From: Anolis carolinensis
Taxonomy: Eukaryota
Assembly: GCF_035594765.1 (NCBI RefSeq)
Contig: NC_085844.1
Span: 213,048,107 to 213,112,106, forward strand
Direction of reading: 5' to 3'
DNA: 64,000 bases
The notes beneath the pieces are model-generated. The model was not told where the DNA came from. It saw only the letters and a program-made list of their open reading frames with translations, and did no database searches. Below are positions 40,403-64,000 of the stretch, piece by piece (position 1 is the stretch's first letter; the number at the start of each line of letters is the position of its first letter). The translations under genes and the position numbers were made by a program.

Positions 40403-40624
40403 CTCTCGTAGATCCCTCTGGTACTTGCTGCTCATTTCTTCTGATTTGATTAGATCTCTCCTGGCAGTGCTTAGATCTTCTTCCAACTCAGCAACACTGG
40501 CAGCAAGAGCAACTAGACGTTCTTTAGCTTGTGCAAGCTCAAAGTTTTGCTTTTCTAGAAGTTCTTGCAGTTCCACAGTACGGCTTGCCTCATCATCTGC
40601 ATGTACAGAGCCATTAGGGAGTCT
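40403..40624 (-). CDS. PPFIA4: Liprin-alpha-4 exon RLPNGS...ELQELLEKQN...KYQRDLRE
   Basis: cag|AGA...GAG|gttaga, 222 nt. Confidence 0.95.
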
Positions 40625-41255
40625 CTGTCAAGTGACATAACAAAGAACTAAGTTCCAAAAGGTATATAATATTCAGCACGACACAGCAGCAAAAATTGAA
40701 TATAAGTCACAGAGTGATACAACTAAAAACTTCCCATCTGTCAAAGGACCAGCACCTGAAAGTATAAATAGAACATTGACAATATTAAAGAAAATATATT
40801 TCAAGACATATAACTCCTGGTGCAGCAAATCAGAAAGCATTGTGCAACTTTCCCCATGTAACAATTTCCTTCTGCTAGAAAAAAGCAACAGAAACAGTAG
40901 GAATAAAATATAAAAGAGTCACAAGTAGCAGATTATCTTGTTTGGACTATCACCACCTCCCAAAGAAATAAATGGAAAAAAAAATCCTGGTATAGAAGCA
41001 TCCATGTGTGGCTGTACTGTATAGCAGAGGTGCTTTCCAGAAGTGAGGCATTTGAATAAGTTATACTCTACAACTGAACACAGTTGGACACGTTAACCCT
41101 TCTATCACTTCAAAATTCCAAAATAGTTAATACACATTTTCTCTGCAAATAAAGGGATCTCAATAAATACTGTTGGTTACTTGAGTCACACGTGAGGTAC
41201 ATCGTATTTCAGTGGTATCATAAAACCACCTTCTTTCCAAAAGGATGTCTCTTAC

Positions 41256-41357
41256 CTTCCAAAGTTTTTTCTGCCCCAGTTCTTTGCCTTCAGGCTTTTT
41301 TTCATCTTCTCCCACAGGTGCTTCCCTCTGGGAGAGGCCTTGCTGGAGGGCACTTAT
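41256..41357 (-). CDS. PPFIA4: Liprin-alpha-4 exon ISALQQGLSQREAPVGEDEKKPEGKELGQKKLWK
   Basis: cag|ATA...AAG|gtaaga, 102 nt, variable linker, in frame. Confidence 0.9.
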
Positions 41358-41752
41358 CTGAAAAAAATACATTTTAAATACATACTTACTCTTGAGGCTT
41401 TCATGGAACAAAAGTACAAGACAAATGGAAACAGGGAATCATTTGTCTTGATGGGTTTTTTTATCTTTATCGTCACAATGACCCAAAGCTTATCTTTTTA
41501 ATGCCTAGGGCTTTTAGAAGCATTATTCAGCTGCTATGTTGCACTCATCTAAACCTATCAAGCTTCTCTTTTTCATCTTCATCTCCGAAGACAGTACATG
41601 ACCAAAGGACATTGACAATGCTGTAACACATTTGTTGGCACATAGTTTTCCATGAAATGTGATGCAAGAGATATAGAGCAAATGCTTGATAGAACTAGTA
41701 GTCTCAGATCATTTGAAAAATACCACTATAAAATCTAGAAACACATATTTAC

Positions 41753-41827
41753 CTGCTGATGGGCACTAGACAGCTGTTCTTCTAACGTAGCTACTCGTTC
41801 TAGTGATGCCCGTAGGCGCTCTCTCAC
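41753..41827 (-). CDS. PPFIA4: Liprin-alpha-4 exon VRERLRASLERVATLEEQLSSAHQQ
   Basis: cag|GTG...CAG|gtaaat, 75 nt, in frame. Confidence 0.95.
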
Positions 41828-42314
41828 CTGAGAACATGGAAAAGAAAAAAAATGTTTGTTATTTAAAAAAAACAAAAAACAAAAACCTCAGCTAACCTCT
41901 GGAGCTTCTCAGAATGAACACTTAATACCATCTAGCATGAGAAAGGGACTGTGTTAACACAAATTATTCAGTGACTGCAGAAGCCCTACATTATCTGGCG
42001 GATAGGTAAAAAATAACCACACTCAGTCTCCTGAGCTTTGTATCTCAGTGCAAGAAATGCAATTGCATGACACTGTGAACCTTAATGAAGTTAAAGCCTG
42101 GAATCTTTTTATCATAATAAGCAGCAGAAAATCTCAAGAGTACCACTACTGTTCAAATGCAATACTTAAACACACAATTTGACAGTATGCTGCAGAAGTA
42201 ATTTCTTCTATGCTAGAAAGTAAAATGGACCTTTTAATAGCTAAAGAGAAATGCTGGATACTGGCGTTAGGAGTGCGTGTAATTACTTCAAGCTATTACA
42301 GCCCTGTAGTCCTA

Positions 42315-42563
<249 letters not shown>

Positions 42564-44621: not shown

Positions 44622-44723
44622 CCTTGTGTTATTACGCTCTGCTTTCAGCTCTGAGATTTCTTCTTCCCTTTCCAACAGCTGCTCTCGGCATGCATTGAGT
44701 TCCCTGGTCAGTGTTGCAAATTC
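44622..44723 (-). CDS. PPFIA4: Liprin-alpha-4 exon [34 protein letters not shown]
   Basis: tag|GAA...AGG|gtgagt, 102 nt, phase 0/0; conserved liprin-alpha coiled-coil segment. Confidence 0.96.
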
Positions 44724-47700
44724 CTAAAAGGTAATCATATTTGTGCAATTGGAAGATACATGGAACCAAGTTTCCGCACAGTTCCCAACAGAAACAGCAG
44801 TACAAAATGTGGTGGCATTAAATTAGCATCATCCAACCAAGATCATTAAAACAAATTCTGATTTTAAAGCTGGGCTATCTATTATCAATACAATTATGAA
44901 AGTCATAAGAAAGAAAGGGGATAATTAGGGAAACATGCTCATAGTAAAATAGAAAAATAGGGGCTTTTTAGTCAGCAACTCTGCAATTTTTGTAAAAACA
45001 TCAAGATGTATACATAGTAAGCGCAATAATTATTCTGATATATAATTAAATTGCATTGAAACCAGTTTTTTTTACATGGGGGTTCAAATCTGGCTATCTG
45101 ACAGGGGTGCTTTGATTGCACTTTTCCTGCATGGCAGAGGTTTGGACTAGATGAACTATGTGGTCTCTTCCAATTCTATTATTCTATAATTCGATGCTAT
45201 CACAATGCATGCCCAAAGGGAGCAGTGGTCCTACTAAAACATTTGCCAAGATGAAAGATTTTCACATGCTCAATTTTGTATCAGCTAAAGGCAGAAGAAC
45301 AGCAAGTTAAAAAATTCACTATGTTCGCTTAAGACAGCAACTACATGATGGTAGTCAAGTGAACCTTTTGCACATTAAACAGCTTGAGGCTCAGATACCA
45401 GCTGCTGTTTACCATACATGCACCACAGTAGAAAAGACATATGGTTCTTTCCTACCCTTTTTCCATAACTAGCAAAATGGCTTGTCCCAGATCTAGCAAA
45501 ATTTGAAATACCTTTTTAAAAATGATCAATATATATGGTAACTGCTTGCTTTTCCAACAGTAGAACTCAAACACTGTAAAACTAAGTGTGAGCAATGTTT
45601 TTAAGTTGAGCTTTTAATTTGATCTTGATGTATTTTGAAATTATTTCAGTTTTTTAACTTCCCAAGCTAGAGTAAAAGTTTTCAATAAAAACGTTATTGG
45701 AGATGCAGATGCACTGGACAGCCTACTGTACAGCTGGGAGATGTTGTTTTAAAAATAATTACAGCTACAGCTCCAAACCCCTCTTTCTAGGAGTAGCTAG
45801 CTGCAACCATGGTTACAATTTCTAAAAGTTGCTCTTTCCTTTCCTTGGCAGAATGCCTGCCCATCACAGAAACTGATCTAGAGAGGTCTATCCTGGGGCA
45901 TAGTACATTCCTGCTAATACACTGACATGCACATAAAAGCAGGTGGTAAGGAAGAAAGCAAAAGGAATTAAAATGACAGCAGAAACTTCCCAGCCCTCCC
46001 TCCCTTCGTTTTCTCTTCCATACACCAGAAGCCTTACAAAGCTAAATGCCAATTGGAAAATCTCTGACAGCTGCAGGGATTACCTCAGAAAGGGCAGGGA
46101 TGAACCAAGCAGAGTTCAAAAGAGGGAACCAAAATAGGAACTGTGCTGAGAGCCCACCCATGTAAGATATTTGATGAAGCTTCCTCTGTGGACAATGTTG
46201 ATCTGAGGTTTTATTACTGACAGAACATTTGAAATAGCTCAAAGGAAAGCGAGTGCTCCTGTCTCTACGATTCCTGGGTTTTAGAATATGAACAAGGCAA
46301 CAACATTTACATAGTCAATTTGCATTATCTCTACTTGACAGTTTAGCATAAGAATCAAGATGTTGTAAGTGGGTGTTGGGATCCTACCGTATGTGCCGGG
46401 AGGGGATCCCTCACTAGGGAACTAGGGGCATAGCTGGGTGTATTTATAATGAACGCTGCACTCAGAGGATTCAAACCATTTAATGGAAAATGTAAATGTC
46501 TGATCTACTTGGATCTGCACAGAATTTAACAAAATTTATTTTAAATATTCCTGCTATTGAATATTAGAAAGGAACTGAAAAGTTCATCCTCTATATAGAA
46601 AGAACGAAGCCATATGCCAATATTTATCATACTTTCAGAGTGAAAATGAAAGAGTTTGTTTGATTGTGCTTTTCCTGTATGGTGAGGAATTGGACAGAAA
46701 GACTCATGTAGTCTCTTCCAACTCTATGATTCAATGAGATATACAGATGGAGTTACATAAAACAATAGTTACCCTACACACATGAGAAAGCTTTGTTTGT
46801 TTTATCCCACGTGGCAATAATGACTGTATGTATTCCATATAGAAGAGGAAGGTGGACGCTAAGTGTCATATAATCATGACATATCTTGTGGCATAGAAGC
46901 ATACGATACTTTTCATTATGCGGAATACATAAAGAGTGGACAGCATATTCATACAATGAGGGTCCTTGCATTACACAAGCCCTTGCATCATGATAATTAA
47001 TGTTATTTGCCATAAATAGATTACAGTTTGTGGTGATCTAATCAATGTGCGACCTCTAAAAACCACAGCCATCAACTGTTCTGGTCAGGTCTTGCAAACT
47101 CTAGGATGTGGCTTTCTTGATTAAATCAATCTTTTTGTTATGCAGTCTTCCTTTGTCTATAGTGGTGAAGTTGTTATTCCCAATTCCTAGCAGATAACTA
47201 TCTCCTCAAGATAATCCACACAGAAGAAAGATGCAAAACAAAACAGGAACTGCGTATATTTTGAAAGACATTCAAGATCACTTTGAAATGTTAAATGTCT
47301 TTTCTTGTTTGCTAAAAAAAAAAGGTAACCACAGAGATATCCCTATAGAAACTGCTAGAGTAAGCAGACATGATGGTATAGATGCTATGTTCTACAGCTG
47401 ACTAGCAATAAACCTGTCACAAATGGGAATAAGTAAAAAAATGTTCACTCACCCCCTCCATTGTTTCATGCTAGCTCTTTCCTCCTCACCTAGAAATAGT
47501 CCATGGCTTGCTTTATTTTTTTCACATCCTAATATCCTTCTGGCATTTTTGTCACTACATTTGCTTGATTCCATATTGTCTACACTCCAACAATCCTCTG
47601 GGTCTCCTTTGACTCTCTGCTAGAATACTGTGTAGTCTTTTCTCTAATATTCTGGGACATAAAAATCATCCGCGCTCCTGGTTTACATCATTTGTCTTGG

Positions 47701-48951
47701 GTTTTATTTTTTAAAATTTATTTATGTGATGCAGTGTTGGCCTTGAGGAAGACTGTGATGGAATGCTGGTCTTGAAAAATAGACATACATATCTTTTAAT
47801 AGATCAATGTCATGTATAATCTTAATTTCGGGTACTCTGAAGTCCTCTGTGAAGTGTGAAGGATCAAGAAAAATAACACTGAATTTGCTCACACCTTTTG
47901 TCCAAAGTCTTGAAATAATTTTTAAAAATGAAGCATGGCAAGAAGCAAATTTCACTTGATATAATTTGCCAGCTTTTCTGTCAACCTTATAAAGTAAGAA
48001 GGATGCTGACATACTCAAACTGCCATCTAGATGTTTAAAACAAACTAGGAACCAAAGATACACTGACTCAGATCTACCCAGATCAATATGTGGTCGAACG
48101 AGTGCGGCCATCTGGGTTCAGCCTAATTTGACCTGCAGCAGGGAGTTCCACAGATTCGTAGGAACCGTGCTGAAATCAATAAAAGAATGAAGTATGTTCC
48201 AGTGGCAGCTTAAAAATCCCCTTTCTATCAGCTCCTGACGATGTAATTAATCCTGAATAAAAAGTATCATTTCTTTTTAACTCAATCTTCTCTTAAGTGT
48301 TATTTTGTATCCTCTTCTTAACTCCTTGCATGGAAAAACTCCTCCGTTTCCCTCCTGGAACATGGCAATCAATCCAAGTCTCACTGCAAGCCTCCCGTTT
48401 CTTCGTCTCTCTCCCTCTCTTTCTCTCTTGCCATTGATTAACATGGGGGCTCACATTTTTTAGTCATAACTCACCCAAAACTGCTTGGAGCATGTCTATC
48501 TTTTATTTACATAACTTTTCTGAGCCCCTGGTTCCAAGACAACCAACAGCGCCAGAATTGGACAAGTTTAAAGAACCAAAACAGCTGATTGTCAAAAACT
48601 GTCAAAACGGAGTTTCCCCGCGCTGCGGCACAGTTTTCTCTGCAAGAACAGACTAATAAAGGTTCGGACTACGTGCTGGGCACGAAGGGAGGCCACCCAG
48701 GGCTCCCTGCTTGCCATTCATGAACTGCCCTCACCTTCGGAGTGCCCCCCTCCCCGCTGACCTTTGGCCCAGAAGGGCCGTTTCGCCTGGATTGCCGCAG
48801 AATCCCCCTTTTCTGAACTTTTATCACTTTATGAACCCCCTGCATTAAATCTTGGGCTCTGGGATAGGTGAAACAAGATGAATTAAGTTCCCACGTGTGT
48901 CCTCTGTACCCTGCATGTTCCCTTTTCCCTTTATTACCATGAGATATATTT

Positions 48952-49810
48952 TGTATTATGAGATATTGAGGGATGACCGAAATCTGACCTGGAAATCAGT
49001 ATGACCGGAGGAGATTATTCCTCACACCAGGAGACTGTCAGATGCTCATCTTGCATGGACAATAGATATGGTCTTCCCCCATTAAACGTCGGAGCTAGCC
49101 CATTTAATGGGAAGATGGCTATCTGGTTCTCGGACCACTTACAATGGGGACGATCAAAGCCCATGGTCGTCCCAGCTGTCAAAATGAACTGGACTCATTC
49201 AGAAACAAATCCTGCCCATCTGATCAGCCTTGACTTACCGGACTCTGGCAAGCCTGCCAGACAAATATGTATATTTGCACCCCAAGAAGCAATCTGGAAA
49301 CTACCTTGAGGGCTTATGAAGGCTCTCGGAGTTTCCTTCTCGCATATTGACTCAATGACTCTATCATAATCCCTAGCAAATCCATTGTTCTCGGCTCAGC
49401 CCGCCTCTTCGCCTATGATTGGTGGAAGAAACTGAGACGGCAGGAGCTCCCTGACTGGACGAAGATTCGTGCTGCTCCCTCAGGGGCCAAGCAGCGCGCA
49501 GGGGGACGGGGGGATGAGTGGCGCGAATCTCAAATCGCACCACCCCATTTTCTGTATTATAAAGGTTGCTGTTCTGTATTGTGTGGGATGGCTCCATGAC
49601 GAACCATCGTGTCATCCTTTTCAGCTGAACTGAATAAACAACTCGGTCTTCTTTCTTCATGTCTGAGGGTGAGATCTTTGTAGCGAGAAACCTTGACCTT
49701 TAGCGACTCCCCCCTTGCCAGGATTCTCAGACCTGTGGCCAGGGGTAGGAGCTAGGGTTCCCTCCCAAAAGAAGGGGACCCCCAAATCCTAGCTCAATAT
49801 CAAATATACA
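48952..49810 (+). mobile_element. Solo LTR (ERV-like)
   Basis: TG...CA termini with about 18-bp imperfect inverted ends (tgtattatgagatattgag / ctcaatatcaaatataca); ATTGG box near 49418, TATAAA 49558, AATAAA 49633; flanks attt/atta. Confidence 0.7.
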
Positions 49811-50213
49811 ATTAGAGAGACTGTACCATCATAAAGTAAAGGTAGAGGCACTTTAACGCTCATCCAGCTCAAAAATTGAGTTTTGCCATTTCAATTTGTC
49901 TGTGCCACTTGCCACAATCAAGATGTTCTGGGTGAAAGTCTGCACTGAATACATAAAAGATTCTACACTACACAAGTTTGGAGCAGAAGCTACAGTAATA
50001 ACAAAAGTCTTCATACCCTGCCCGAAGGTAAGATATTTTTATATCTTTTTGTTTGTAACTCTCAATGAGATATTGATCAGAATACCCTGCATCTACATAT
50101 GAGAGTTGGTTGGGTTTTTTTTATTTGAAGAAAGACGCATCTATATCACCCATGTTAAGAACAAGGAAACAAAAGCGCAGTAGCACTTCAGAGATTAACT
50201 ATTTATAATAGTA

Positions 50214-51166
50214 CTAGCTGTGCCCGGCCATGCTTTGCTGTGACAAAGTCTGGTGGTATGGAAAATAAAGTATTGAGGAATTGGTGGTAGTTAGTATATG
50301 TTCTTGTGGATATACAATATTTCTGGTTGTTCCTTTTTTTGGTCTGTTGGAGGCAAGTATGAATGCTGCAATTAGCCAGAATGATTAGCATGTAATGGCT
50401 TTTCAGCTTCAAAGCCTGGCTGCTTCCTCCCTGGGGGAATCTTTTGTTGGAAGGTGTTAGCTGACACTGATGGTTTCATGTCTGGAATTCCCATTTTCAG
50501 AGTGTTGTTCTTTGCAATATTTTCTATCCTTCTACTGTATGTGTAGATGAAGAAGTACCCATATGCAGTGCTTGAGCGCACACACTCAAAAGGAAAGGCT
50601 ATGGCCCTCAGAAAACAGAGTATCTGCCAGGCTTTGGTGATGCAAGGCTATTCAGTGCTATTCATGCTGGCCAATAATGGATTCCCCTAGGTAGGAAGCA
50701 GCCAGGCAAGTGGGATTTATACCCCTGTGGAATAATGTCCAGTGTGGGGGAAAGAAATCTTGTCCGTTGGAGGCAAATATGAATGCTGCAATTAGCCAGA
50801 ATGATTAGCATTTAATGGCATTTCAACTTCAAAGCCTGGCTGCTTCCTCCCTGGGGGAATCATTTGTTGGTAGGTGTTAGCTGGCCCTGATTGTTTCCTG
50901 TCTGGAATTCCCCTGTTTTCAGAGTGTTGTTCTTTATTTATTCTTCTGATTTTAGAGGATTTTTTTAATACTTGGAACAAAACTGTGTTCGTTTTCATGG
51001 TTCACAGCAACACAATAATAATATTATTATTAATAATAATAATATTATTTCCTGTCTGGAATTCTCCTGTTTACATAGTATTTTAGTATTTTTATTTACT
51101 ATTCTGATTTCAGAGATTTTTAATACTGGAAGCCAGATTGTGTTCATTTTCATGGTTCACAGCAAC

Positions 51167-51230
<64 letters not shown>

Positions 51231-51977
51231 CTCTGATAATACACACTACTTCTCCCCCTCCTCAGCTTCCTCCCTGGAGGAATCATTTGTCTGGAGGTGT
51301 TAGCTGGCACTGATTGTTTCCTGTCTGGAATTCCCCTGTTTTCAGGGTGTTGTTCTTTATTTACTGTCCTGATTTTAGAGATTATATTGTTCTGTTTTAT
51401 TATAACACAGTAATTTTATATATTATATTTATAATCTTACATTATCTACTTTGAACTGGATTATATGAGGCACCTTCTACACAGTTGTATAAAATCCACA
51501 CTGAATTGGATTATATGGCAGTGTGGACTAGAGATACTGTGGATTATCTGCCTGGCATTCTGGGTCACATAGTTGTGTGGAAGGGCCTTGAGTCTACACT
51601 GCCATATAATCCAGTTCAAATCAAATAATCTGTATTTTATAGGCAGTGTGAAAGAGGCCTAAGTGATCCCCCGGGAGCCATTGTGGCTGAGGGGGTTGCT
51701 ATGACATGAAGCAGGCGGAGCCTAAAGGGGGCAGGGCCTACCCTTCTGACTGGCAGCCAGGGGGAGAACGGCTCTTCCTCATCCTTCCTCCCCCCCCCCC
51801 CCCCCGCTTTGTGTTTTTGGCTTTTCTTTTTTAATTTGGACTTTGTATTTCTAGGTTTATTTTACTGAAAGACATAGATTGGATGGCTTTGTCTTTTGTG
51901 GCCAAATTTGGTGTGATTTGGTCAGTGGTTTTGTTGTTTACTCCATGGGAAAAACACATTACATTTTTATATATTGA
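50214..51977 (-). mobile_element. Helitron with repeated Penelope 3' fragments and MITE cargo
   Basis: A|TCAATATATAAAAATG...hairpin CTAG|T on the minus strand; homologous to the 26317 copy; (AAT)n at 51167-51228. Confidence 0.87.
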
Positions 51978-52509
51978 TTAACACAATCAAAACCAGGTTT
52001 AAGAGATTTCTTCAATGTTGAAGCCAACACCACCTTGAAGTAATTTGAAATGTTTTGAAACCCCATATTGTCTGGTCAAATTGGAATTACTCAAAGAGGG
52101 CTGCTAAGGGCATGTTTAACAAGTACTTCCTACTCAAGTTACTGAAATCCTTTATAAGCTTATAGTCTTTCAAACCCATGTTTTAGATTAGACCTTGCCA
52201 GGCCTTGTCCTCCCAGACCTCAAATGGTAAACTGCACAGCCATAAGCTTTCCAGATTAGGTAGGGGCACCTATAAATAGATTAAAAAGTGAAATAGATGT
52301 CTAATCTTGGTTGAGTTAAGAACATCACAATTCTAGGGACAGAAAATTCACATGGGGCAGAATAATTATGTTCAATTATTAGAAAGCACTTAAATATTTT
52401 GTACTATTCAATATAATGTATAGAATGTATACATTCTAGTGTGCTTTCCTGCACAATTGAAGGTGTAGTTTAGTTTACAAAATCCCGTGTAGCAAATGAT
52501 ACCTTATGA

Positions 52510-52644
52510 CAATAATTCTCAACCTGTGGGTCCCCAGATGTTTTGGCCTTCAACTTCCAAAAATCCTAACAGCTGGTAAAGTGGCTGGGATTTCTGGGGG
52601 TTGTAGGCCAAAACACCTGGGGACTCACAGGTTGAGAACCATTG
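52510..52644. mobile_element. 135-bp hAT MITE
   Basis: Palindromic body; TSD ccttatga/ccttaaga. Confidence 0.85.
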
Positions 52645-55001
52645 CCTTAAGAGATGCTTCCTCCATCTTACCCCTTGGAGCAACAATGATATTCAACTGA
52701 GGATTTTTAAGTTTCAATGTTAAGTGTTAAACGTATCAATTATGTTCTCTTCACAGCCATCAGTGACACAGCGTAATAGCTGGGGGTGTAAAACAAATTG
52801 GGCTTCTAAGGACAATTCCATAAGGAAATGCCTCATTAAAAAAACACAAAAAGGGTTGTTAACTGAATAAAATGCCCTTAAAAATTCAACAAAGTAATGG
52901 GGTACAGCTGGGATAGCCGGCTAATTTTAAATACTTAAGGGGAATGACTGTTATGCCAGTCTTATTTTATGAACCAACATAGATGCAGAAGCAATCAGTG
53001 CTATTCAAGCGGCACTGTGAAGAATAAATAAATCAATGTGGAAGGAGAACTTTGAAGTAAAAGAGAAAATCCCACTGCTGTCTCAGAGTCTTTTTTTTAA
53101 TCTAGCATCCTGGTTTCCACAGTGGTTTCCCAAATGCTTCTAGAAAACCACAAGCAGCACATGCTGGAATCTGATTTTTCTTTAGCAGAATAAACAAAAA
53201 ATTCATCCAATTCCAATAGATTAAAGGCCCAAATAATTTCAATGTATCAAATGTACATAGTTTTCAATCACAACTGTACATAGTTTTCATCTTTTTTTCT
53301 TACAGTCTGTGCTTACTTTCATTCTCTGATGTAAACTATTTTGAATTTAATTCCGATATGAGAGGTCACTTAGCAAAATGCTACTGGATTTCCATTTTGA
53401 CAGTTGGGTTTTTGCTTTGTCTATTTGAACAATGATTAAATTTGAGGTCCAAACTGTCATTTAGAAAATAGACTGACTGATGAAATTAAAAGCCAGGGTA
53501 ACTCTTGGTAATATATTTTCTGGCTGCTGTTTTGCAGCAACTTCTATTCAGAGATATGGTAGTTTTAGTTCTCAAGGTAATACGCTGCCATCACTAGTTG
53601 CCATCATTCACAACTTATTCTTTTCAAATGTATATAATTCCTTTTTAATATTAGTTTCTCCACAACCCCATGACAATTGCCTACCATAAAAATACCCTAG
53701 TAGATTATCATAGGAAGAGAGATAACGCAAGATAAATATTTGAACATTTTTGTGTATTTGTGGCATATCGGGGGAAATGAGAAAAACGGTCAGAACCTAT
53801 ATTGCTCATCATAGCTTGTTTTCAAAAATATTTAGGTATATAGGACAGGAATATATCATTCCTAATGGGCATTGTTGAATGACACAAACAGCAAAATATA
53901 TGCAAACATACGCTATCAGATACTAATTTTATTTCTTCTAAAAAAGGTACAACTGAAAACACTGTGAAAACCTACAAATTAGTTTGACCAAATTACAGGA
54001 GTCCAAAAACGTGAGTGCATATTCTATGGATATGGACAGGACAATACTTACATTGTCCTAGTTTTCTGTCCATTACCATGCTCATGGTGCATTTTTATGA
54101 ATATTTATGTATGAGTGGATACATACACACCCTCACACTAGAAAGGAACAGGGAAAAATTGTCAAATAGAACTTAATTCCACATTTCTTTTGGTAGATAA
54201 ATTCTTGTTCAACCCTACACATCTATCTAATGTAGTTCCCCCCTGAAGCATCAGTTACTACATCTCTTGGTGATGTAGTAACTGATGATCACTTATGATC
54301 ACACCCTTGGTGATCATAGCTACTGGAATCTTTTCAGCCTGACTGTGTACTTAAGGAGCCCTTAGGTTCATATCCTACACTAGAAACAATAAAGCAGATC
54401 ACCTCAGGTCTGCCACTATGTCAGCCCTTTGTTCAGATTCACATGAACCCTGCCAATGTGTAAAAACTGACCGTTATACTAGTAAAAGAACCAGCAAATT
54501 CACCAACCAACTTCAAACAGTAAGTAGGGGGAAATAGGGCAGATCTTCATACTTACTTAGCTGCTTCCCACTTGCAGTTTCTCTGATCACTCAGCTGAAC
54601 TACAACATAGAACATGCCACTTGAAAAAGCCTAAATCTGTAGCTCTCAATGTTCAAGTGCCCTTTTACTTGTGCACAAGGAACCTATCATATTAAAGCAA
54701 CCTTCGTAAGTGTAAGCTGTTCCAGCAAGCACCTTACTAAATATTGTTGGTGGCATAACTGATCTGCTATCTTCTTCCCAGGTCTATATTTACTACTGTT
54801 TCCATTTCTGAACATAAATTTTAAAAAAATCAATGATCCATGGCCACAAGAAACTCCTAAAAAGACAGAACTGACAGGAAACAGACTGCTCATAAAGGTT
54901 CCAAGGAGCTTGGAACTATTGAAAGAGTCTGAAGAACTTCCATCTACATGGGCAGGTGAAAAGCTTCAATGAGCAGGCACTAAAAGGTGGATCCTGCTTA
55001 C

Positions 55002-55073
55002 CTGATACATGAACATGCTGAAATTAGTGCCATTGAACAGATGGATGGTTATGGATTTGTTCCCTGTGTTCAT
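55002..55073 (-). CDS. PPFIA4: Candidate alternative first coding exon of liprin-alpha-4 (MNTGNKSITIHLFNGTNFSMFMYQ)
   Basis: ATG with A at -3 and an in-frame TGA 12 nt upstream; 24 open codons ending at a strong phase-0 donor CAG|gtaagc, in frame with the EFATLTRE exon; resembles the PPFIA2 alternative N-terminus as recalled from memory (MNT..H..NGT.F...Q). Confidence 0.7.
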
Positions 55074-56239
55074 TCTGAGGAATCATAGCAAGCTTGATCT
55101 GGAAATCCATGGCTCTGCCAGGCTGATGAGATAGTAGCAACTAAATCCTGAGATGAAGGTTAGAGGCAGCCTAGGTTCCATGCTCCACCACAGACTTTTG
55201 TGTGTGAAATTCAAACCAGCAGGAAGTTGCTTCTTGCAGAGTCTGTCTCCCCAGGAGAAGAAGGAAATCTGGGCACTGAAATAGTGCTAGCAAAGAACTT
55301 ATCAGGAGGATTTGTTTGGAGCTCACAGAAATTCTCCATCTTTCCCCTATGCTAATCACATCCTTTTTCAAGATCCAGGGGAGGCAGCAATGTGGCTTGG
55401 TATGAGAGGAAAAAGAGCTGGGAGCTGGAGAGCCAGTGGCCTCCCCCCAGAGAATCTCACAGATGCACAAAGTCCCTTCGCAATGACCTAGTTTGCTCTG
55501 CATTGCTTGCATGTTCCCTATACAAATCGTCGGAGGCAGAGGAATTGAAGCAGGAGCAGATAATAAATCCGCATAGCCCCTTAATCCAAGTGGCTGCAGA
55601 GCCCAAGAGGCGTAACCCTCACTTAGCTGACCTGGCATGCTCTCTGCCCAGCTGCTCAGCACAGAGGATTGCAGACACCAGAGCTGGGTTACTCAATCCA
55701 AGAGGTGGGTATGGAGCATGGGAGACCACAAAGAAGAATGTGTGTGAAAATCAGTCCGAGCATAGCTCCACTTAGGGCCAAGATACCATTTGACCAGCTT
55801 GGAATTTATTAAATGGATGGACCTGGCTGACCCAGCTGGGAGACTGCCAGAGGGCAAACGTCATGCAGCTCAGAAAGAAAGTAGCAAGGCCAGAATGTGT
55901 CAAGGCCAGAAAGGGCTCATGCTAGGCTTTAAGAGCCTATCTAAGTGCTTGGCTCTCCCATCCCTGCCAAACTCTTACATACATCTGTTGCTGCTCAGCT
56001 GACTATGGAGCACCCAGAGGTTGGTAGCACCATAGAATAGGATGTATTTCTGGATTAGCTTTTCTCCTTCCCAGAATGCAAGCACTCCTCTCTCACTAAG
56101 AGCCAGTTAGTGGTAGTCACTTTTTTGGCCAGGGTCTATAACAAGCTTTAGGCCTAACTGCTCAATTTTGGATTCAACGTCGACCTGTTAAATTATTTTA
56201 TCAGGACAGAATCTTGGATTCTTTGTTTTTCTCCATAAG

Positions 56240-56710
56240 TTTTTATTATGCATTTCAAAAAATATCACACCAAAAAGGAGAACAAAGAAAGGTATAAGGG
56301 CTATGGAGCTCTGATTAGTAGATTAGGATTATATAAATGTCTTCTATATCACAAAGGAAGAACAAGGGGATTGAGGGAAAAGAGAAACCTTTTATTTGTT
56401 ATAATTATAACCTTTATATCTTCAACTCAAGTACTATTATATACATTGTTTAAAGTTTTGAAAGTTCCAAATGTCCTCTGTAACAGAAAAGAGCATGCTC
56501 TTGTCATCCAATGTCAAGACTGCTAGTCATATCTTCCAATACTATCCAATATTCTTTATATCCTCTTTTCCAGTTCTTTACATGTATTTTATCTAATTTT
56601 AAATACTGCCATATAAATTTAAAAATTCAATTCCATTTTTAATAAATTAATATTGTTTAGGTGAGAATTCACTATGTTGCACTGTCATCTTTTCTTTGTC
56701 TTTTTTAAAA
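56240..56710 (-). mobile_element. Degenerate L1 3' fragment
   Basis: T-rich end with tttatt and L1-like composition; boundaries approximate. Confidence 0.45.
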
Positions 56711-60000: not shown

Positions 60001-60014
60001 CTTTTTTTTTTTTT

Positions 60015-61767
60015 TGGAAATGCTGTGAAGCATTTGCTAGGTTCTTTGCGGAAATAGTCGCTCTGATCTGCTCTAGCTTTGACACCATATTAACTGCAGT
60101 CTCCGAGGATGTAGCACGAGCACCTGCTTGTCCCATTTTGATGGATTCATTTCAATTGGTTGAGCTCGAGGATGTGGACAAGGTGCTTGGAGAGGCGAGG
60201 GATACCACATGCATCCTAGACCCCTGCCCATCCTGGCTGGTGAGAGAAGCCAGAGGGGGATTGGCCGAGTGGGTGAAGGTGGTGGTGAATGCCTCCCTTC
60301 GGGAAGGCATTGTTCCAGCGAGCCTTAAATTGGCTGTGATCAAACTGCTGTTGAAGAAGCCATCACTAGATCCCACTCAATTGGACAGCTATCGGCCTAT
60401 TTCCAATCTCCCCTTCTTGGGCAAGGTCCTGGAATGTGTGGTGGCTGTGCAACTCCAGGCATTCTTGGTTGACACTGATTTTCTGGATCCGGCACAGTCT
60501 GGCTTCAGGCCGGGGCATGGTACCAAGACAGCCTTGATCGCCTTAGTCGATGATCTACGCCAGGAAATGGACAGGGGGAGTGTGTCCCTGCTGGTTCTGC
60601 TGGACCTCTCAGCCGCCTTCGATACCATCGATCACGGTATCCTTCTGGGGTGCCTTGCCAGGATGGGTCTCGGAGGTACTGTTTTGCAGTGGCTCCATTC
60701 CTTCCTGGAGGGTTGTTCTCAGATGGTGTCATTGGGGGACGCCTGCTCAGCCCCACAACCATTGACTTGTGGGGTCCCGTGGGTTCAGTACTGTCCCCCA
60801 TGTTGTTTAACATCTACATGAAGCCGCTGGGAGAGATCATCAGGAGTTTCAGGGTGAGGTGTCATCTGTATGCAGATGATGTCCAACTCTGTCACTCCTT
60901 CCCACTGTATCGGAATGGATAAGGGCCAACTAATTGAAATTGAATCCAGACAAGACAGAGGTCCTCCTGGTCAGTTGTAAGGCTGAACAGGGAATAGGGT
61001 TACAGCCTGTGTTGGACGGGGTCGCACTCCCCTGAAGACACAGGTGCCCAGTCTGGAGCCCCAGGTCTCGGCGGTGGCCAGGGGAGCCTTCGCATAACTC
61101 AGACTTGTGCGCCAGCTGCACCCGTTCCTTGGGAAGTCTGACTTGGCCACGGTGGTCCACGCTCAGGTTACATCCCGTTTGTATTACTGCAATGCGCTCT
61201 ACATGGGGCTGCCTTTGAAGATGGCCCGGAAGCTCCAATTAGTACAACGGGCAGCAGCCAGGCTAATAACTGGGGCAGCTTACAGGGAACGTACCACCCC
61301 CCTGTTAAGCCACCTCCACTGGTTGCCGATATGCTACCGAGCCCAATTTAAAGTGCTGGTTTTGACCTACAAAGCCCTAAACAGTTCTGGTCCAACTTAC
61401 CTGTCCAAACGTATCTCCTCCTATCAGCCCACAAGAACCTTAAGATCATCTGGGGAGGTCCTGCTCTCGATCCCACCTGCCTCACAAGCGCGGCTGGTGG
61501 GGACGAGAGACAGGGCCTTCTCGGTGGTGGCTCCTCAGCTGTGGAACTCCCTCCCTAGTGACATTTGGCAGGCTCCATCCCTTCTGGGGTTTAGAAAGAA
61601 GTTGGAGACCTGGCTATGTGCGCAAGCGTTTAATGAATGAACTCAGTTAGCATTGACATGGATTGGATTAAGGCTCTTGCACAAGGTCTGATGGATGACT
61701 GGCATATATATTTGGCATTGCACTGTGTTAAATCTTTTATATATTGTGTTTTAATATGATATTTAAC
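60015..61767 (+). mobile_element. L2 LINE (RT), 5'-truncated and frameshifted
   Basis: YRPISNLPFLGK, QSGFRPGHGT, LLDLSAAFDTIDH, HLYADD; same family as 30462-31778. Confidence 0.94.
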
Positions 61768-61769
61768 TA

Positions 61770-62549
61770 CCGTATTTTTCGCTTTATTGGACGCACCGGA
61801 TGATAAGACGCATCCAGGAACTAAGGGCAAAATGGGGCGATGTGTGCCGTGCGAGCGCGCGCACGGCACACATCGCCCCATTCTCCCTGCCTGGACGCAG
61901 ATCCAGATCTGCGTCCAGGCAGGGAGAATGGGCACATTCTCCCTTCCTGGATGTGTCGGCAGACGCATCCAGGAAGGGAGAATGGGGCGATGTGTGCCGT
62001 GCGCGCGCGCCATTCTCTCTGCGCGCCCCATTCTCTCTGCGATGTGTGCGTGCGCGCGCCCCATGCCTTGGCTTCCCTTTTTCTGTGTCCGGGCGAAATG
62101 AATGAAGGTCCTTAAGTTCGGGGGAGTTCTTCCTCGCTTTGGGAGGAGCCGGAGAAAGAGAAAGAAGGGAAGGAGAGAGGGCAGCGCGGAGGAGATTGTC
62201 TGGCAGCCGAAAAGAAAGGAAGCAAGGAAGAGGGAAAGTTGAGGCGAAGGGAGAGGGAGGCTCAGGCTGGGGTTGTTTCCCTCTCCTCCTTCTTCTTCAA
62301 GGGTTAAGTTGAGGCTGAAGGAAAAGGACAGACACAGAGAGGCTTCCCTCTCCTCAGGAAGCGATGTGGGGCGATGTGTGCGTGCGCGCGCCCCATTCTC
62401 TCTGCCTGGATGCGTCTGCCGCATCCAGGAATGCGTCTGCCGACGCATCCAGGAAGGGAGAATGGGCACATTGCGTTTATAAGACGCACTGACTTTTCCC
62501 CTCTATTTTTTGGGGAAAAAAAGTGCGTCCTATAAAGCGAAAAATACGG
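61770..62549. mobile_element. CpG-rich Tc1/mariner-type MITE
   Basis: TA|CCGTATTTTTCGCTTTAT...ATAAAGCGAAAAATACGG|TA, 18-bp perfect TIR. Confidence 0.9.
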
Positions 62550-62573
62550 TATTTTAACTGTTTTATTATTTTA

Positions 62574-64000
62574 CTAGCTGTGCCCGGCCACGCGTTGCTG
62601 TGGCGAAGTCTGGTGGTCTGGGAAATAAAGTATTGAGGAATTGGTGGTAGTTAAGGTAAAGGGTAAAGGTTTTCCCCTGACATTAAGTCCAGTCATGTCT
62701 GACTCTGGGGGTTGGTGCTCATCTCCATTTCTAAGCCGAAGAGCCGGCGTTGTCCGTAGACTCCTCCAAGGTCATGTGGGATGACTGCATGGAGCGGCGT
62801 TACCTTCCCGCCGGAGCAGTACCTATTGATGCACTCACATTTGCATGTTTTCAAACTTCTGGGTTGGCAGAAGCTGGGGCTAACAGTGGGGGCTCTCTCC
62901 GCTCCCCCAATTCAAACCTGTGGCCTTTCGGTCCAGAAGTTCAGCAGCTCAGCGCTTTAACACGCTGCGCCATCAGGGGATATTATTTCCTAAAGGTTGT
63001 GAATATACAATATTTCTGATTGGGTTTTTTTGTTTGTTAGAGGTAAGTATGAATGCTGCAATTAGGAAAAATGATTAGGATGTAATGGCCTTGCAGCTTT
63101 AAAGCCTGGCTGTTTCCTCCCTGAGTGAATTTTTTGTTGGGAGGTGTTAACCGGCCCTGATTGTTTCCTGTTTGGAATTCCCTTGTTTTCAGAGTGGTGT
63201 TGTTTGCGATATTTTATGTGCTTCTACTGTCTGTGGCCCTGAGAAAACAGAGGATTTGCCAGACTTTGATGATGGGAATACTTTGTTGGGAGGTGTTAGC
63301 TGGCCCCGATTGTTTCCTGTGTGGAATTCCCCTGTTTATTTACTGTCCTGGTTTTAGAGATTATATTGTTCTGCATTATTCTATCCCAGTAATTATTTCA
63401 TATTAAAGAAGAATCTCACTTATCCAACATTAGCTTATACAATGCAGTCTGCCTTTTCATAATCAATGTTTTTGTAGTCAGTGTTTTAAATTCATTGTGA
63501 TATTTTAGTGGTAAATTTGTAAATACAGTACAGTAGAGTCTCACTTATCCAATAAATGGGCCGGCAGAATGTTGGATAAGCGAATATGTTGGATAATAAG
63601 GAGGGATTAAGGATAAGCCTATTAAACATCAAATTAAGTTATGATTTCACAAATTAAGGACCAAAACATCATGTTAGACAACAAATTTGGAAGAAAAAGT
63701 AGTTCAATACACAGTAATTCTATGTAAAAATTACTGGATTTATGAATTTAGCACCAAAATATCACGATATATTGAAAGCATTGACTACAAAAATGCGTTG
63801 GATAATCCAGAACGTTGGATAAGTGAGTGTTGGATAAGTGAGACTCTACTGTAAATACTACATAGCATTACTGCGCATGGAACTACTTTTTCTGTCAAAT
63901 TTGTTGTATAATATGATGTTTTGGTGCTTAATTTGTATAACGATTACCTAATTTGATGTTTAATTGGCTTTTCCTGAATCCCTTCTTATTATCCAACATA
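62574..64000 (-). mobile_element. Helitron 3' part with Sauria SINE (about 62653-62979), Penelope and mariner cargo; continues past the window
   Basis: Hairpin plus CTAG|T at 62574; (ACCTTT)n SINE tail; mariner TIR copy at 63531-63851 nested in an older opposite copy. Confidence 0.87.

Follow-up and report, generated by a model that had tools for sequence, protein, structure and literature searches.

The Anolis carolinensis liprin-alpha-4 gene, PPFIA4, quite probably has a spliced alternative 5' coding exon, which likely serves as a first exon under an internal promoter, likely predates the duplication that left PPFIA2 with a counterpart, and would give a protein without the first coiled-coil helix (H1). 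The exon lies on the minus strand of the window, the whole 64,000-nt stretch of DNA analysed here, with its coding part at 55073-55002. It runs from ATG AAC ACA to ATG TAT CAG, has 24 codons free of stops, ends in phase 0 and translates as MNTGNKSITIHLFNGTNFSMFMYQ. A first-pass annotation of the same sequence had given these coordinates, strand, 24-codon length, phase and donor, and all are correct on re-reading of the sequence.

The donor, CAG followed by GTAAGC (54996..55001), opens a GT-AG intron at 44724..55001 that is removed in the alternative transcript and encloses a repeat cluster at ~49.8-52.7 kb. The first-pass annotation had put the exon 10 kb upstream of the one that opens EFATLTRE, in agreement with an intron length of 10,278 nt. 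That downstream exon (EFATL...NNTR, 44723-44622), preceded by a TAG acceptor, is the start of helix H2, and its acceptor is common to the canonical and alternative 5' exons. The next four PPFIA4 coding exons are at 42539-42375, 41827-41753, 41357-41256 and 40624-40403 on the minus strand (span 40403..42539). The window holds 18 PPFIA4 exon matches below the EFATL exon, and Anolis liprin-alpha-4 records match one exon at 100% identity. Beyond the window, at G000:C4:213126978-213126742, is the canonical first coding exon, with 79 codons and phase 0. Between it and the shared exon is a 33,912-nt (33.9-kb) intron, in which the alternative exon follows the canonical donor by 23.6 kb and precedes the shared acceptor by 10,278 nt.

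Frames that run from an ATG to a donor are frequent: 40 kb of this locus contain 94 candidates, and the PPFIA2 intron of 190 kb contains 451. Sequence by itself is therefore weak proof. The candidate rises above chance because it combines a splice junction, orthologues and a reciprocal match to a paralogue. The exon with its surroundings (301 nt) has a single match in the own genome, although the search skips repeats and does not prove rarity. Each neighbouring exon has four genomic loci, which are the four liprin-alpha paralogues. Contig depth is low at the exon and very deep over repeats at 45.0-45.4, 46.4-46.9 and 49.8-52.7 kb. The single genomic match, the low depth and the failure to find a processed copy speak against a transposon-derived or retrocopied exon.

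Repeats and probable mobile sequence lie elsewhere at the locus. High-copy repeats that contain direct and inverted repeats and have very high contig depth occupy 49777-52662, 44967-45447 and 46410-46890 in the intron. The canonical intron also has a GC-rich island (0.52-0.54) at 60001-63000, in which there are long open frames; it is probably a mobile element. Upstream of PPFIA4, pieces L015 (~7.3-7.6 kb, minus strand) and L017 have, in GC- and CpG-rich stretches, an open frame resembling a retroelement reverse transcriptase.

The PPFIA4 exon is spliced through its canonical donor, in frame, to the shared downstream exon. Contig 8 of run X14 (1191 nt) bridges the joint, with 389 letters on 55001-55389 and 802 past the donor. 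Its loose end equals window positions 44693-44722 over 30/30 letters, which occur once in the window. A contig of run X13 departs from the window sequence at the same donor, and its loose end matches the start of the EFATL exon over 21 letters; the X14 contig alone passes the 31-letter bridging rule. The junction is supported by two of the four runs covering 53700-56400 (X13 and X14), which are one sample of one study. Their RNA status is a program's guess, and none of the holders listed is on record as RNA. A GT-AG join across 10 kb and the lack of any processed copy found in the genome argue for a spliced transcript. The first-pass annotation had named this junction, 55002 to 44723, as the one to look for, and a spliced contig with exactly that join is present, with two runs of one sample leaving from the donor.

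The minimal transcribed extent given by the X14 contig is 55002..55389 on the minus strand (388 nt, 316 nt of them 5' of the ATG). There is no loose end at 55389 among those listed, and the contigs give neither transcript start, level nor tissue. Runs X9, X12 and X10 have no depth over the exon, which is no evidence either way in a contig comparison (seven runs examined). Contigs of X7 and X11 cross the donor unspliced, as DNA would. The EFATL exon is linked, in one X12 contig, to 307 letters from outside the compared stretch, which are probably the canonical exon. Within 55001-55149, the X13 and X14 contigs share one T>G difference (plus strand).

Squamate and bird records conserve the frame; the first-pass annotation had counted a lack of such conservation in other sauropsids against the exon. 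Among the 175 PPFIA4 records that include the EFATL exon, 154 have the canonical N-terminus, 15 another or none, and 6 the 24-residue peptide. Identity to the window peptide is 22/24 in a horned lizard (Phrynosoma), 19/24 in a gecko, 17/24 in a cobra (Naja), 15/24 in cuckoos (one scored, the other having the same peptide) and 13/24 in a tinamou. All seven sauropsid peptides are 24 residues long with the same Met start, and 11 of the 24 positions are invariant (M1, G4, H11, L12, N14, G15, N17, S19, M20, M22 and Q24). The peptide joins EFATL directly in four records: gecko XP_048353248.1, cuckoos XP_069731726.1 and XP_053943310.1, and tinamou XP_010214610.1. The Phrynosoma and Naja models have extra residues inserted between the two. 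The gecko has both canonical (P0255, P0375) and alternative (P0362) forms, and the exon is used in place of the canonical first coding exon upstream.

The peptide was not seen in the turtle, crocodilian and five mammalian PPFIA4 records listed (15 of 65, and 15 of 18, in clusters); this does not amount to absence, because only parts of the clusters are listed. No PPFIA4 copy of the exon was found among 150 representatives, a set in which clustering hides isoforms and which contributed one more teleost PPFIA2 form, and a protein search returned only PPFIA2 alternative forms among the 120 listed of 7980 matches. The Anolis PPFIA4 records among those listed (two NCBI isoforms, one UniRef, two A. 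sagrei) are canonical. The model of Pogona PPFIA4 isoform X10 (P0366) begins MTVVKRQ, past most of H2; its origin may be a different 5' exon, or the alternative exon in untranslated form.

The PPFIA4 exon is most likely a paralogue of the exon that begins PPFIA2 isoform g. The first-pass annotation had cited such a PPFIA2 isoform, and it is real: it exists as human 'liprin-alpha-2 isoform g', as the cDNA product BAH11792.1 and in the lizard's own PPFIA2. The lizard genome has four liprin-alpha loci. In the equivalent PPFIA2 intron of about 190 kb (C5), the exon is the best of the 451 ATG-to-donor candidates (score 41, next 15). It has 27 codons and reads MIFSDMNTVSGSSKVHPPNGTRFYTFQ followed by GTAAGT, one P-to-S change from the peptide given in the first-pass annotation. 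The proposed alignment of the two peptides also holds, with 10/21 residues identical and no gap, and a pairwise BLASTP gives an E of 4e-05.

Profile searches agree in both directions. With the PPFIA2-peptide profile, the candidate scores highest (45.0, next 19.7) among 12,246 open windows of the PPFIA4 intron; with the PPFIA4-peptide profile, the PPFIA2 exon ranks first of 59,862 open windows in its intron (32.7, next 21.7). The antisense null for the PPFIA2 profile has a maximum of 37.2, reached once in 61,995 windows, and with so fat a tail the score alone is not overwhelming. Both exons begin at a Met, finish at a phase-0 donor and use the same intron and acceptor exon. The PPFIA1 and PPFIA3 introns gave no comparable hit (best profile scores 11.5-17.8). 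The likeness is at the protein level, not at the DNA level: a DNA alignment of the two exons does not rise above intron background (24 versus a top of 34.5), 4 of the 10 identical residues have silent changes, and identity by codon position is 14, 11 and 8 of 21. Evidence for a promoter element common to the paralogues is marginal, with 10/300 shuffles scoring equally high.

The PPFIA2 form is widespread and slow to change. Its N-terminus heads 118 of 119 new records among the matches listed (120 of 1480), the remaining one having it behind an extension, and it is present in mammals, turtles, birds, an agama and two teleosts. The PPFIA2 peptide is 26/27 identical from lizard to primate; the PPFIA4 peptide is 13-22/24 identical among sauropsids, that is, it changes faster. 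In a tree of 15 rows over the first 640 residues, with alpha-3 and the outgroup partial, bony-fish alpha-2 groups with tetrapod alpha-2 and apart from alpha-4 (93/97, 100/100; the alpha-2 branch just below the starred threshold). The tree gives no sister grouping of alpha-2 and alpha-4. This topology suggests that the alpha-2/alpha-4 duplication preceded the split of fish and tetrapods, which took place more than 400 million years ago. The alternative exon likely predates the duplication, because the PPFIA2 form is in human and teleosts and the tree places the duplication before that split.

Other variation was seen at the 5' end of PPFIA2. Models of birds, turtle and alligator (P0037, P0048, P0080, P0085, P0088, P0441) have a further 21-residue in-frame cassette between the canonical and EFAAL exons, and one hoatzin model joins the alternative exon, the 21-residue cassette and EFAAL. 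At the cassette position, primate model P0093 has another insert, 18 residues long. Above the PPFIA2 alternative ATG, L043:2498-2680 (C5) resembles the in-frame extension of agama model P0226, includes eight upstream ATGs and looks like a leader conserved across squamates.

Conservation around the PPFIA4 exon points to a promoter immediately above it. Compared with the related organism B (run X11), the block 54860-56000 has 53 differences in 1141 nt and three gaps, against 140 in 1177 nt for the flanking pieces (Fisher p = 1.6e-10). Since the block reaches 56000, ~600 nt above the transcribed part are conserved too, as expected of a promoter. The likely promoter region, at 55390..56000 on the minus strand, has a GC of 0.50-0.53, is CpG-poor and has initiator-like words at 55403 and 55393. 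From this we infer that the exon likely comes first in its transcript, under an internal promoter, with transcription beginning at or above ~55390. Contigs cannot reveal the start itself: the X14 contig stops at 55389, and a possible acceptor AG, 7 nt above that point, ends at 55396, with 17/19 pyrimidines above it. The same two features would suit an internal coding exon of 394 nt (55395-55002) that is spliced from a farther-upstream non-coding exon, with the same protein and no promoter at 55.4-56 kb. We consider this unlikely, as its acceptor would be AAG, the conservation with organism B continues for 600 nt above that acceptor, and the contig has no loose end listed at its 5' end.

Five ATGs precede 55073 in the transcribed part (55361, 55339, 55181, 55110 and 55086), and three are in a stronger context than 55073, which has an A at -3. 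They open an upstream ORF of 42 codons in strong Kozak context (55339-55211), one of 32 codons in the main frame, ended by a TGA 9 nt before ATG 55073 (55181-55083), and an overlapping out-of-frame one of 28 codons in strong Kozak context, which includes ATG 55086 and terminates 7 nt ahead of the in-frame ATG 55016 (55110-55024). In the PPFIA2 exon, a pair of in-frame ATGs stand 15 nt apart. PPFIA4 retains an upstream ATG-ATT at 55086 that aligns with PPFIA2 Met1; it stands 13 nt before 55073 and is out of frame. The first-pass account of the exon was right about the frame and omitted both the upstream ATGs and this out-of-frame ancestral Met. The loss of the in-frame first Met is likely old in sauropsids, since six of six orthologous models start at the second Met. 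Given the upstream ORFs, a start at 55073 would probably be of low efficiency and likely depends on leaky scanning, re-initiation or a nearer transcription start. Ribosomes would reach 55073 by the first two routes or begin at the conserved Met20 or Met22 (55016, 55010), which could act as invariant fallback starts. Starts at 55073, Met20 and Met22 all remove the same canonical segment.

A decaying paralogous exon, transcribed and spliced and hardly translated, would also account for the five upstream ATGs with three in strong context, the frame lost from the ATG matching PPFIA2 Met1, the faster change than in the PPFIA2 peptide and the downstream start of the Pogona record P0366. The exon would then act as a regulatory leader, or translation would start at Met20, Met22 or further down. 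Such decay is distinctly improbable: the length of 24, Met1 and ten further residues are invariant in 7/7 sauropsid peptides, similarity to PPFIA2 is greater at codon positions 1-2 than at position 3, and the PPFIA2 exon is nearly invariant despite eight upstream ATGs within 330 nt. We give still less credence to a real exon that arose independently of the PPFIA2 exon and resembles it by chance or convergence. The paralogue peptides overall share only 6-11 of 21 residues, DNA similarity is at background, and PPFIA4 copies have been seen in sauropsids only; against this are reciprocal best hits in homologous introns over 21 ungapped residues, an identical phase and acceptor, and an upstream ATG-ATT kept in place. 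A conserved, translated first exon shared with PPFIA2 by descent is the reading that we carry forward.

Such an exon would act on the part of the protein that self-assembles. According to the available text of a review, the CC1 region of liprin-alpha consists of helices H1-H3, of which H2 and H3 assemble into dimers and tetramers and H1 was only modelled; conservation is highest in CC1, and it switches between dimers and higher oligomers under regulators that the review terms unknown (PMC8044993). The match to PDB 7D2H, the solved liprin-alpha-2 H2 helix, begins at the EFA residues. As that construct starts at EFA, the exon boundary would be the H1/H2 boundary and the alternative form likely lacks H1. 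The first-pass annotation had proposed replacement of the canonical first coding exon and of the first coiled-coil helix, which fits this construct. The gecko alternative form has 1179 residues versus 1234 in the longest canonical forms; the lizard product would similarly be 55 residues shorter than canonical and keep H2, H3, CC2 and the SAM domains. In an AlphaFold2 monomer model of the tinamou protein (17-row alignment), pLDDT is <50 for residues 1-15 and a helix runs from residue 18 into H2; residues 1-15 are thus predicted to be disordered and residues 18-24 to extend H2 by ~two turns. A beta-hairpin at the H-L-x-N-G motif, considered as a candidate, is absent from the model.

The internal promoter would yield an H1-less liprin-alpha-4 with altered self-assembly, and promoter choice would decide whether the self-assembling CC1 has three helices or two. 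The number of helices may tune how large the oligomers are and how condensates form, in a manner specific to tissue or stage. In the accessible part of a study of worm SYD-2, the LH1 region at the N-terminus has two activities, self-association and ELKS binding (PMC3857474), and in that of another, ELKS phase separation is promoted when the N-terminal coiled coil oligomerises (PMC13311821). RIM binds CC2N, residues 300-404 of alpha-2, as given in the available text (PMC12151379), and CC2N is retained in the alternative form.

Some alternative promoters are shared by vertebrate ohnologues, for example P1 and P2 of Runx1-3. As in Runx1-3, an alternative 5' exon has been kept in duplicated genes; unlike there, the PPFIA exon would remove a structural helix from a synaptic scaffold and is found in only two of four paralogues. 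The nearest known system is human liprin-alpha-2 isoform g (BAH11792.1), which has the same intron, phase 0 and acceptor exon, a homologous peptide, and the same removal of a canonical N-terminus of 79-83 residues. The PPFIA4 peptide differs in beginning at the second Met (24 residues) with the first ATG out of frame, in two extra C-terminal residues, in its conserved Met20 and Met22 and in its faster evolution; its exon is 10 kb from the acceptor, compared with 92 kb for the PPFIA2 exon. For human PPFIA2, five cDNAs with tissue-specific first exons, four from brain and one from testis, came from oligo-capped libraries; the paper's table leaves the exon of each cDNA unstated, and PPFIA4 is absent from the main text as available (PMC2780955). 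Two liprin-alpha reviews, in their available portions, mention only C-terminal and SAM-insert splice variants.

Automated RefSeq models of PPFIA4 (Sphaerodactylus X8, Cuculus X4, Phaenicophaeus X4 and Tinamus XP_010214610.1) already have the orthologous 24-residue N-terminus joined to EFATL. They are unreviewed predictions, silent on paralogy and function. We found no account of the PPFIA4 exon or its paralogy in the literature searched; a 2009 article in Genomics on how liprin-alpha genes are organised and spliced (PMID 19013515), which lay outside that literature, may describe alternative 5' exons. With the PPFIA4 form in a few automated annotations, and alternative 5' exons in duplicated genes a known phenomenon, this is not a new mechanism.

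Liprin-alpha proteins are needed for presynapse assembly, as stated in the available text (PMC11001580). A broader idea, which we hold tentatively and think more doubtful than probable, is that alpha-2 and alpha-4 share a hidden promoter switch, more than 400 million years old, that makes an H1-less scaffold. This form might be an 'unknown regulator' of CC1 self-assembly that caps or reshapes oligomers and sets the size of active-zone condensates in particular neurons or muscle, and mammals may have an unannotated PPFIA4 copy. The annotation gains an isoform that is easily missed because its coding part is only 72 nt. An H1-less form in two paralogues, near-invariant in alpha-2 from fish to human, would offer a ready test of the role of H1.
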